From a virus, in the UHGV virus genome UHGV-1773670: a stretch of 13,657 nucleotides of DNA; one strand, 5' to 3'. Position 1 is the first letter of the stretch. Each line of letters starts with the position of its first letter. The position numbers were made by a program. Shown here piece by piece: positions 1 to 3,000 of this stretch.

Positions 1-3000
1 GAAATGAAATGACTGAGTCAGCCGAGAAGTATTTCCCCGCTTATTCGCACCTTCCCTAAGTGACATACCTAAAGTTTCGATATGCTGCTGAATATCCTGT
101 AGCGTCTGCGCCTGAGATAACAGGATTTCACGGTTGCATAACTCTTTAACCAGATGCTCAAACTTGCTGTAATAACCGATACGACTTAGTGTTTCTTTCC
201 CTGCATTCTCGCCTTCTTTGATAATTCCTCTTTCGCTAAGAATCAGATCGTGTTTGGTTCCGGTAATAACGTATTTTCCGAGGTCGATGTTTAGCTTCAT
301 TGTTTTCATTGTTAATTCCTCAGTCATTACTGATAGCGCCATAGCGTGAGCGGTAATTACGCAGGCGAGGGTCAATTTCAGGGAAGTGGGTATATGTGGC
401 TTTGCGGAATGGGCGGATTGATGTCTGGTAAATTCGCTCGCGTTCTTCTTTCTCTGCAAGCCATATACAATGGCGAAATTCCTTTTCCTCTTTCGTTTCC
501 TGCGGTAGCGACATTATCCGGTCGTAGTTTTTTCTGAATTTATCCAGCACCTCCGATACGGAATTGCCGGAACAGCGGCGCGCGTCATCCTCACCATACA
601 GAGGCGCTGGCATGTTTTTCTCCTGATTAAATTGCGTGAATAGCGTGACGAGGGAAGGGGAGAGTTACTGGTGCAAAGGGTATATATAACGAGCGTGTTC
701 ATCGGCTACATCGGTACTGACTCGATAGGTTCGCTTATCAAACGCTTCGCTGCTAAAAAAGCCGGAGTAGAAGATGGTGGAAATCAATAATCAACGTAAG
801 GCGTTCCTCGATATGCTGGCGTGGTCAGAGGGAACTGATAACGGACGTCAGAAAACCAGAAATCATGGTTATGACGTCATTGTAGGCGGAGAGCTATTCA
901 CTGATTACTCCGATCATCCTCGCAAACTTGTCACGCTAAACCCCAAACTCAAATCAACAGCAGCCGGGCGCTATCAGCTTCTTTCCCGTTGGTGGGATGC
1001 CTATCGTAAGCAGCTTGGTCTGAAAGACTTCTCTCCCAAAAGTCAGGACGCTGTGGCATTGCAGCAGATTAAAGAGCGTGGCGCTTTACCGATGATTGAC
1101 CGCGGTGATATCCGTCAGGCTATCGACCGTTGCAGCAATATCTGGGCTTCACTGCCGGGCGCTGGTTATGGCCAGTTCGAGCATGAGGCTGACAACCTGA
1201 TTGCAAAATTCAAAGAGGCTGGCGGAACGGTCAGAGAGATTGAGGTATGAGCAGAGTGACCGCGATTATCTCCGCTCTGGTTATCTGCATCATCGTCTGC
1301 CTGTCATGGGCTGTTAATCATTACCGTGATAACGCAATCGCCTACAAAGACCAGCGGGATAAAGCCACAACCATCATCGCTGATATGCAGAAGCGTCAAC
1401 GTGACGTAGCAGAACTCGACGCCAGATACACAAAGGAGCTTGCTGATGCTAACGCGACTATCGAAAGTCTCCGTGCTGATGTTTCTGCTGGTCGTAAGCG
1501 CCTGCAAGTCGCCGCCACCTGTGCAAAGTCAACGACCGGAGCCAGCAGCATGGGCGATGGAGAAAGCCCAAGACTTACAGCAGATGCTGAACTCAATTAT
1601 TACCGTCTCCGAAGTGGAATAGACAGGATAACCGCGCAGGTTAACTACCTGCAGGAGTACATCAGGACTCAGTGCCTGAAATAATTTTTTTGCAAATCAC
1701 AAAGTCCATTTAATGAGCCTCGCGATGCGGGGCTTTTTTATGTCCGCAGTAAACGCGCTTCACACGCGCGACTTATGAACACAGAACCTTTCAGGATGAC
1801 CCTTGAGGATGCCGGTTTGGTGATCGGTACCTTTCTGTGGGCCGGAATCCTGTGTGACAAGGTTCATCACTAAAAGGTAATTACTGATGAAGTACCCAAC
1901 AGTTATTGTCAATGGTGTGTCCGTTCGTGTTGATGAGGATGGACGCTACAACTTAAACGATCTCCATGCAGCAGCAGTTGCAAATGGAGAGGCTACAGAG
2001 CAACAGCGCCCAAGCCAGTTTTTGCGTAGCGCGCAGATAAAACGCTTCATCAAAGCACTGGAGGCCAAAGTGCAAAAAAGCACTTTGGAACAAATTCAAC
2101 CACTTAAAATAATCAAAGGTGGTGCAGAACCAGGTGTGTGGGGTGTTGAACTTCTGGCAATCAGATATGCAGCATGGATTAAGCCGGAATTTGAAATCGA
2201 AGTTTATGAAGTTTTCAAAACGGTTGTCCGTCTCGGCGTTGGCGCAATGTCCCGTCTGAATAGAATCGATCACATCATCAATACTGAAACCAAAGCGATA
2301 AGCCAGTGCGCAAGACAAATGGCTAAGTGGGGTGTTGGTGGGCGAAAAAGATTGCTTCATGTTGCACGTGAGAGAGCGGCAAATGAAGTGCAAATGTATT
2401 TGCCCGGGATGGTGTGATTTCGCAGGTTAATCCGAGCAGTCCTTCAGTGAGGCTGCAATAATGCTTTATTCGTATGAAGACGAAGGGTAATCTGTAGACT
2501 CTGATTATCTAATGGAAGGTTTATGATGGACAATTATTTTAAATCTGGCGATAACCGAGTATCTGATTCTGAGCACCAGCGTTTAGTGGCTACCAAAGCA
2601 GCTCTTGAAATTATCAAGGCCGCCGTATCTGCCCCTACCCATGCGAAAAACGTGTCTTATGATTTGGAGGAGGCAATAAAATATCTTCCACGGTTGACTG
2701 ATGCTATTCAGGAAACGATTGGCAAATAGCATTTGATTTTAGTTTTATTATCTCACCTTAAATATGAGTGAGATTAATACAAAGCTACCTACGAGTAGCT
2801 TTTTAATGGCTTATACCTTACACGGGATAACTTAACTGATATCCCCACAAGCGGATAAAGAGATTCTCAATGTCCAACATCTACCAAATCACGTTAACCA
2901 CCCAAACAGGCGAAACCGTTACGAGCAAGACGTCACGATTTCAGCATGAGTTGGTTAACGGCTTTGTGCCGCTTGTGATCGAGACGGGAGAGTGACTGTA

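Follow-up and report, generated by a model that had tools for sequence, protein, structure and literature searches.

The cryptic, or defective, lambdoid prophages of Escherichia coli K-12, e.g. DLP12, Rac, Qin and e14, are shaped by internal deletions and IS insertions. The prophage remnant described here resembles them in several respects: big internal deletions have removed immunity, replication and morphogenesis genes, lysis genes are left over, IS elements lie inside the element, the prophage is fixed in the chromosome, and the junctions show microhomologies of a few nucleotides. DLP12, however, has a complete S-R-Rz cassette, whereas only the last 35 codons of S are left in the remnant. 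Unlike the cryptic K-12 prophages, the remnant has a P22-like, CUS-3-like backbone (with an endosialidase tailspike and neuO) and resides in the lambda att region.

Another described system is CUS-3 (CP000711), a K1-specific P22-like prophage, whose S-R-Rz DNA is 97% identical to that of the locus studied here. CUS-3 and the remnant have the same overall gene order, and both bear the neuO heptanucleotide repeats downstream of the tailspike gene. In contrast to the remnant, CUS-3 is complete (40.2 kb), is integrated elsewhere and has an integrase gene of 1158 nt, as compared with 1071 nt. Relative to CUS-3, the remnant has lost approximately 22 kb and gained a copy of IS5.

The DNA analyzed in this study (hereafter the window) is a stretch of 13,657 nt of the viral genome UHGV-1773670. 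Its positions 1..1300 are 100% identical to positions 4204723..4206022 of the E. coli EC931 chromosome (NZ_CP049118.1), and over its full length the window differs from EC931 by one SNP (position 3925) before becoming divergent from 13479 on. The EC931 prophage is approximately 18 kb long and lies between ybhC and ybhB, in the gal-bio region. Its annotation runs from an integrase through a partial excisionase and a gene of the LprI family to DUF2737, IS5 and a DUF5405 pseudogene. Next come a ‘phage anti-RecBCD protein’, a pseudogene labelled ‘phage holin, lambda family’, genes for an endolysin and a lysis protein, KilA-N, terS and terL; directly past terL follow a DNA ejection protein, gp16-like, sieA-like and Arc/Mnt genes, the tailspike and an acyltransferase. 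As the tailspike is 99% identical (971/981 residues) to the endosialidase tailspike of CUS-3, the element belongs to the P22-like prophages (Lederbergvirus, CUS-3-like), and E. coli EC931 and its relatives carry it.

The most conspicuous feature of the lysis region is a 3' stub of a lambda-family holin gene S on the plus strand (683..790), comprising codons 73-107 and the stop codon. Its 35-residue translation is identical to the C-terminal part (residues 73-107) of the SW4848 prophage holin, a protein of 107 aa, and its DNA is 100% identical to the 3' 108 nt of that gene. Profile searches gave the same picture, with positions 73-99 of 99 and no more covered in Pfam PF05106, and positions 78-112 of 114 in PHROG 126 (holin/anti-holin). 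A preliminary description of this DNA had recognized an S-type stub of about 35 codons at this place, which is fully borne out, and the fragment was already known, since the automatic RefSeq annotation of EC931 by NCBI marks it as a pseudogene. The affiliation with class I holins is indicated by homology and by position just upstream of, and overlapping, R: the stop codon of the stub (788..790) lies within R, which starts at 774, and the 4-codon S/R overlap is kept.

The stub shares with lambda S105/S107 the C-terminal 35 residues of lambda-family S and the overlap with R, but it is devoid of the dual-start motif and of the first two transmembrane segments. In lambda S the dual-start motif is Met1-Lys2-Met3, and the late promoter is followed by a ribosome-binding site belonging to S itself; both features are missing here, since the window and the EC931 genome lack the 5' 216 nt of S together with the region upstream. 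Class I holins have three transmembrane domains in an N-out, C-in topology (PMC10865782). Hydropathy analysis of a full-length relative revealed three hydrophobic segments; the stub reaches into the third (residues ~64-92) alone, and with residues 73-107 alone left, the stub does not have the three transmembrane domains of the class. Lacking the first two of these segments together with the dual-start motif, it cannot be a class I holin. Nevertheless, most of the third segment and the charged C-terminal tail are retained, contrary to the earlier statement that no transmembrane region survives.

The reading frame of the stub had also been described as closed by TAG at 641 and lacking a start codon. 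The TAG is indeed present in frame (641..643), and there is no ATG; however, an in-frame GTG at 671, preceded by GGAG (659..662), opens a chimeric 39-aa ORF. This chimera is the sole plus-strand ORF in 614..790, which leaves no room for an intact holin encoded immediately upstream of R in another frame, a possibility raised at the outset. A junction-spanning query found no second copy of the 3' part of S in the EC931 genome.

Downstream of the stub, the lysis genes are intact, as had been proposed. R, the lambda R type endolysin gene, occupies 774..1250 (plus strand; PHROG 90 endolysin, E=3e-63). Rz, encoding the inner-membrane spanin subunit (1247..1684, plus strand), matches Pfam PF03245 (E=3e-36) and PHROG 13, and nested within it in the +1 frame is Rz1 (1440..1622, plus strand), encoding the outer-membrane lipoprotein subunit (Pfam PF06085, E=2e-20; PHROG 3198). 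The R and Rz proteins (WP_053294719.1 and WP_053294720.1) bear the accessions found also in the intact prophages of the E. coli strains F11 and SW4848. R is a lambda-type endolysin without a signal sequence and therefore needs the lesions formed by a holin (PMC10865782). With a signal-less, holin-dependent R and an S gene cut down to one transmembrane segment, lysis would be impossible even if these genes were transcribed.

Two minus-strand ORFs (320..613 and 1..309), each with a good Shine-Dalgarno sequence as noted earlier (AGGAGA and GAGGAA by the present reading), precede the stub. They had been regarded as belonging to no recognized family, which profile searches disproved. The first is a full-length, 97-aa gene for the anti-RecBCD protein Abc2: it matches Pfam PF11043 over positions 1-97 of 97 (E=4e-62; 206.9 bits against a cut-off of 25) as well as PHROG 656 (‘abc2 anti-RecBCD’), and it is identical to P22 Abc2 (PDB 8B1T chain A) at 87/97 residues (~90%), end to end. 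P22 Abc2 was solved in complex with RecBCD, and its Pro68 was placed in the active site of PpiB (PMC9836394, eLife 2022; PDB 8B1T/8B1U); this proline (P68) is conserved in the protein encoded here. The second ORF is a DUF5405-family gene (56..309, minus strand; ATG at 309 or 300), with 25.0 bits against Pfam PF17399 (cut-off 21.6; profile positions 6-77 of 88) and E=9e-31 against PHROG 154.

The DUF5405 gene is truncated at its 3' end by IS5, and its C-terminus is formed by IS5-derived codons instead. The homology of the gene to other prophages starts at window 56, while positions 1..55 are the right end of IS5, recognized by its terminal inverted repeat, which ends at 55. The ORF assigned to 1..309 had been expected to continue upstream of the window; it is rather interrupted at this point, and NCBI annotates the gene as a pseudogene without a C-terminus. 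The inverted repeats of the element lie at L001 20040..20055 (window 40..55) with the partner at L001 18861, its transposase is annotated immediately to the left in EC931, and the whole element measures 1195 bp. Both IS5 ends in EC931 are flanked by a 4-bp target-site duplication, CTAA (56..59 in the window), conforming to a YTAR site. The uninterrupted target site, ...GCCATGCTAAGTGAC..., was found in two metagenome contigs (L007 and L012), the first of which carries an intact, 96-aa version of DUF5405.

The genomic company of these two genes is constant. In F11 and in many other genomes, abc2 follows a Rad52-like recombinase gene and ssb, which places it in the leftward early operon, and DUF2737 and ssb are neighbors of abc2/DUF5405 in over a thousand genomes of E. 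coli. Both abc2 and DUF5405 regularly belong to this operon in P22-like prophages. Within the window, the recombination neighborhood of abc2 is cut down to the 3' remnant of a phage ssb gene (627..685, minus strand), consisting of its final 18 codons with the stop and collinear with ssb of the F11 prophage (L003 20572..21078). Homology to F11 ssb stops at 685.

The breakpoint, expected earlier to lie within 600..790, can be placed at 683..685. Two BLAST pieces, 56..685 and 683..1300, overlap by three nucleotides, and a three-way alignment showed that the left-hand homology extends to 685 and the right-hand homology begins at 683, with TAT as the sole overlap and no foreign DNA between the ssb side and the S side. 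TAT is present in both parental sequences, on the ssb side and on the S side, and the junction lies in unique, non-repetitive sequence. A microhomology of 3 nt is close to what chance would give, so the mechanism, slippage or end joining, is something that we infer.

Comparison with intact prophages indicated what is missing between the two sides. In the F11 prophage (L003), DUF5405 (19964..20245), abc2 (20265..20558) and ssb are followed, approximately 13 kb beyond ssb, by the holin gene (33675..33998) and by R and Rz (to 34892). The DNA between ssb and S carries the Rad52-like recombinase, kil, cIII, ral, a LexA-family repressor, cro and cII, and, further on, genes for replication, the nin region and the antiterminator gene Q. 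In both F11 and SW4848, abc2-ssb and S are some 13.3 kb apart. With F11 used as a proxy for the left side of the junction, the interval missing from the window is L003 20631..33893, i.e. 13,263 bp; since the exact undeleted parent is missing from the collections, both this length and the gene losses given for the junction are proxy estimates.

SW4848, a complete prophage at the same ybhB flank, is the counterpart for the right side: its late half matches window 683..5522 without a single mismatch and 5542..13429 with 2. The early-left side of the window is 98.4% identical to F11, and the abc2/erf module of SW4848 is an allele different from that in the window. SW4848 was on this account rejected as the direct parent despite the identity of its late half; with an early-left part of the F11 type and a late part of the SW4848 type, the exact parent must have been a mosaic of both.

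These data bear directly on the earlier suggestion that the two minus-strand ORFs are a cargo (moron) cassette inserted in S, in place of the 5' part of the holin gene. The strand of both ORFs, opposite to that of the lysis genes, their compactness and good ribosome-binding sites, as well as the frequency of mosaic junctions in lambdoid phages, are all in keeping with such a cassette. However, abc2 and DUF5405, as the two ORFs turned out to be, have a fixed place in the early-left operon, with constant neighbors, and what lies beside the junction (627..685) is not a cassette boundary but the end of ssb on its 3' side. Leftward, the ea-region genes usual for such phages follow up to int and the flanking chromosome, and no 5' half of S is encountered on the way. 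Extra DNA lying between the two halves of a gene and absent from relatives was not found; at the position of the junction the relatives have 13 kb more DNA, not less. As DNA has been deleted and none added, we consider a cargo insertion extremely improbable. The proviso, made from the start, that the ORFs might prove to be conserved lambdoid genes was correct in substance, although these genes are not normally adjacent to S.

We regard it as very probable, instead, that the locus is the scar of an internal deletion of approximately 13.3 kb in a decayed P22-like prophage, the product of ordinary decay with a functionless junction. Further support comes from the fate of the missing part of S. 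A composite query made up of the junction, the 5' part of S and 230 nt upstream of the latter matched the EC931 genome only at the place of the junction, so the 5' DNA of S is absent from that genome. A broader composite query, which also included parts of ssb and R/Rz, matched a second EC931 place of unattributed origin; since the narrower query matched a single place, the extra match does not represent the 5' region of S. The absence of the 5' half excludes an insertion, for which both halves of S would have to be present, and it likewise excludes an inversion or translocation; the latter were considered and ruled out because the 5' part of S is not located elsewhere in EC931.

A related explanation is that the junction arose by recombination between two co-resident prophages, or by inversion, rather than by deletion within one prophage. 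Its attraction lies in the mixed composition of the element (the left side of the F11 type, the right side identical to SW4848, which has a differing early-left module) and in the presence of other prophage-related sequences in EC931, such as the second place matched by the composite query. Nevertheless, both prophage ends are in their native chromosomal context, at ybhC and ybhB, and the retained blocks have the same order and orientation as in an intact prophage. No reciprocal product is present, the 5' part of S being absent, and mosaic early modules are normal among otherwise identical P22-like phages, so that no second event is needed to account for them. A two-prophage origin or an inversion therefore appears highly improbable to us.

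The junction is rare, but it is not confined to one strain. Among 5426 complete RefSeq E. coli genomes it was found in one, EC931, and a scan of species-representative genomes found none carrying it. The initial view that it is unique to EC931 was dropped when exact-protein and exact-DNA look-ups retrieved the identical junction from a further complete genome, OZ040824.1 (in addition to CP049118), and from metagenome contigs of ERZ27315542 and OGZA01007817.1. It is thus present in at least three assemblies beyond EC931, two of them without IS5. The right end of the window, with seven heptads leading into IS1 from 13479, differs from EC931 as a possible mis-join, and by analogy the junction itself might be suspected of being an artefact of assembly or a chimeric contig. 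However, the same abc2/'S junction occurs in two complete chromosomes and two independent metagenome contigs, and its sequence is unique and non-repetitive; the probability of an artefact is practically negligible.

The contigs without IS5 also reveal the order of events in the decay of the prophage. Contigs L007 and L012 carry the junction together with an uninterrupted DUF5405 gene, i.e. an empty IS5 site, and therefore the deletion preceded the insertion of IS5.

The prophage bears a second, compound deletion scar at 5520..5545, where the 3' end of terL, a 26-nt island and the 5' region of gp20 meet. Homology to terL stops at window 5522 and that to gp20 begins at 5542; accordingly, 8,538 bp of SW4848 (L004 21846..30383) are replaced by 19 nt. 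Untemplated filler was considered as the origin of the 19 nt and rejected, because the island that holds them (5520..5545) corresponds to the gp4/gp10 boundary of an intact phage, of which they are a relic. The island is joined to its surroundings at microhomologies of 2 nt (TA) and 4 nt (GATT), which corresponds to two deletions, of approximately 5.2 and 3.3 kb. Lost at this scar are the portal, scaffold and coat genes, gp4, gp10, gp26, gp14, gp7 and the beginning of gp20. Events of this kind have thus taken place at least three times in the element. In the index of the assembly collection, 397 blocks list the truncated TerL of 441 aa in its exact form, which indicates that at least the second scar is widespread.

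Taken in sequence, the events were very probably as follows. The ancestral prophage had the order int ... DUF2737, DUF5405, abc2, ssb, recombinase, kil, cIII, ral, N and cI, continuing with cro, cII, replication, nin, Q, S, R, Rz/Rz1, packaging, head and tail genes. Illegitimate recombination at TAT, presumably by replication slippage or end joining, then linked the plus-strand codon 73 of S to the 18th codon from the end of the minus-strand ssb, so that abc2 and DUF5405, which form the minus-strand tail of the leftward early operon, came to lie directly beside the 35 codons left of S. Two further microhomology deletions took out the portal through gp7, and IS5 later entered DUF5405, leaving the CTAA duplication. 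The 13.3-kb deletion, by removing lethal functions (kil, induction and lysis), probably led to fixation of the prophage in the chromosome.

The element has no repressor, PL/PR, operators, N, replication genes, Q or late promoter, and so induction, replication and late transcription should all be abolished. Judging from established lambda and P22 biology, it would be a non-inducible, lysis-dead and head-less prophage remnant. The earlier proposal that the prophage is lysis-defective is in this respect supported, and the defects go far beyond lysis. The promoter PL, Q and pR' having been lost, the transcription of abc2 and R/Rz is likely to have been lost as well; a crude promoter scan is consistent with this, as it found no promoter-like sites beyond chance upstream of abc2 or of 'S-R-Rz. 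The scan gave one weak minus-strand site (1317..1289), a yield below that of shuffled sequence, so the site itself carries no information. In its length (97 aa), in Pro68 and, among relatives, in its site downstream of recombination genes, the abc2 of the window is like that of P22; unlike the latter, its operon promoter PL and its partner recombinase gene are deleted. It is probably silent and out of its working context, and its product is a putative RecC-binding modulator of RecBCD.

The spread of the remnant through a lineage, with abc2, R, Rz and Rz1 uncorrupted, might suggest that the scar has acquired a use. A fortuitous promoter could drive abc2, whose product would then be a domesticated RecBCD modulator; alternatively, the 39-aa ORF could yield a single-pass S peptide, composed of the third transmembrane segment of S and the charged tail. 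We find such a use very unlikely. That R, Rz and abc2 are perfectly conserved can be explained without selection, as it would also be expected if the event was recent.

The correct label for the locus is that of a defective P22-like prophage remnant carrying abc2, the remains of ssb, a holin pseudogene and R/Rz/Rz1 as orphans, and a holin-interrupting cargo cassette would be a wrong one; beyond a correct annotation the import is small. The remnant constitutes a clean and datable case of stepwise prophage decay, with three microhomology deletions followed by an IS5 insertion. It keeps the K1-related tailspike/neuO end and could be of minor use in lineage typing or in studies of prophage domestication.

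One observation concerns the right end of the window, where seven heptad repeats run straight into IS1 from 13479, unlike in the complete EC931 genome. This arrangement could be a repeat-induced mis-join.

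The remnant originates from a K1-type P22-like phage. Its tailspike (10326..13271) is 99% identical to the endosialidase of the complete P22-like prophage CUS-3, with 971 of 981 residues in common, and the CUS-3 enzyme is specific for the K1 capsule. On the other hand, the remnant differs from CUS-3 in occupying the gal-bio site and in encoding a 356-aa integrase.

The loss of the head genes, which amounts to approximately 8.5 kb in comparison with the intact prophage of E. coli SW4848, is marked by a compound deletion scar (5520..5545), at which terL is joined to the 5' region of gp20 and TerL is shortened to 441 aa. 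The two genes are bridged by a 26-nt relic from the gp4/gp10 boundary, and the microhomologies TA and GATT are found at the scar. The head-less remnant is widespread, since the exact protein product of the truncated terL (4202..5527) was present in 397 indexed blocks from publicly available assemblies. Among the loci examined that carry it (L005-L011), contig L008 stands apart: the gene located 5' of Rz matches PF00959, i.e. a T4/P22-type lysozyme and not one of the lambda R type, which suggests a module exchange later than the terL deletion.

A further deletion likely occurred on the int side of the element in EC931, the complete E. coli genome matching the window. To the left of the window (L001, the EC931 locus, 17518..18823), the annotation gives an excisionase gene that lacks its N-terminal part. 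From there to IS5, just two genes are present, one of the LprI family and one of the DUF2737 family, whereas the F11 and SW4848 prophages carry several additional ea-region genes in this interval.

At the right end (13430..13657), seven AAGACTC heptanucleotides directly abut the left end of IS1, which begins at 13479. According to the CUS-3 annotation, these repeats constitute the phase-variable 5' region of neuO; their number is 35 in the complete EC931 genome and 23 in SW4848. In EC931, IS1 is absent from the neuO repeats, and an identical IS1 sequence lies 19 kb upstream. Two readings of the junction at 13479 are available: IS1 truly inserted here in a sister strain, or the repeats caused a mis-join at the edge of the window.

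Within 659..790, the deletion at the holin gene S also produced a chimeric 39-aa ORF, with GGAG (659..662) ahead of a GTG at 671. The predicted chimera would combine MQRV with the third transmembrane segment and the charged tail of S. A small ORF (1775..1873), located after the Rz terminator and ahead of the KilA-N gene, encodes 32 aa (MNTEPFRMTLEDAGLVIGTFLWAGILCDKVHH) with a single hydrophobic stretch and is unannotated throughout the records examined.
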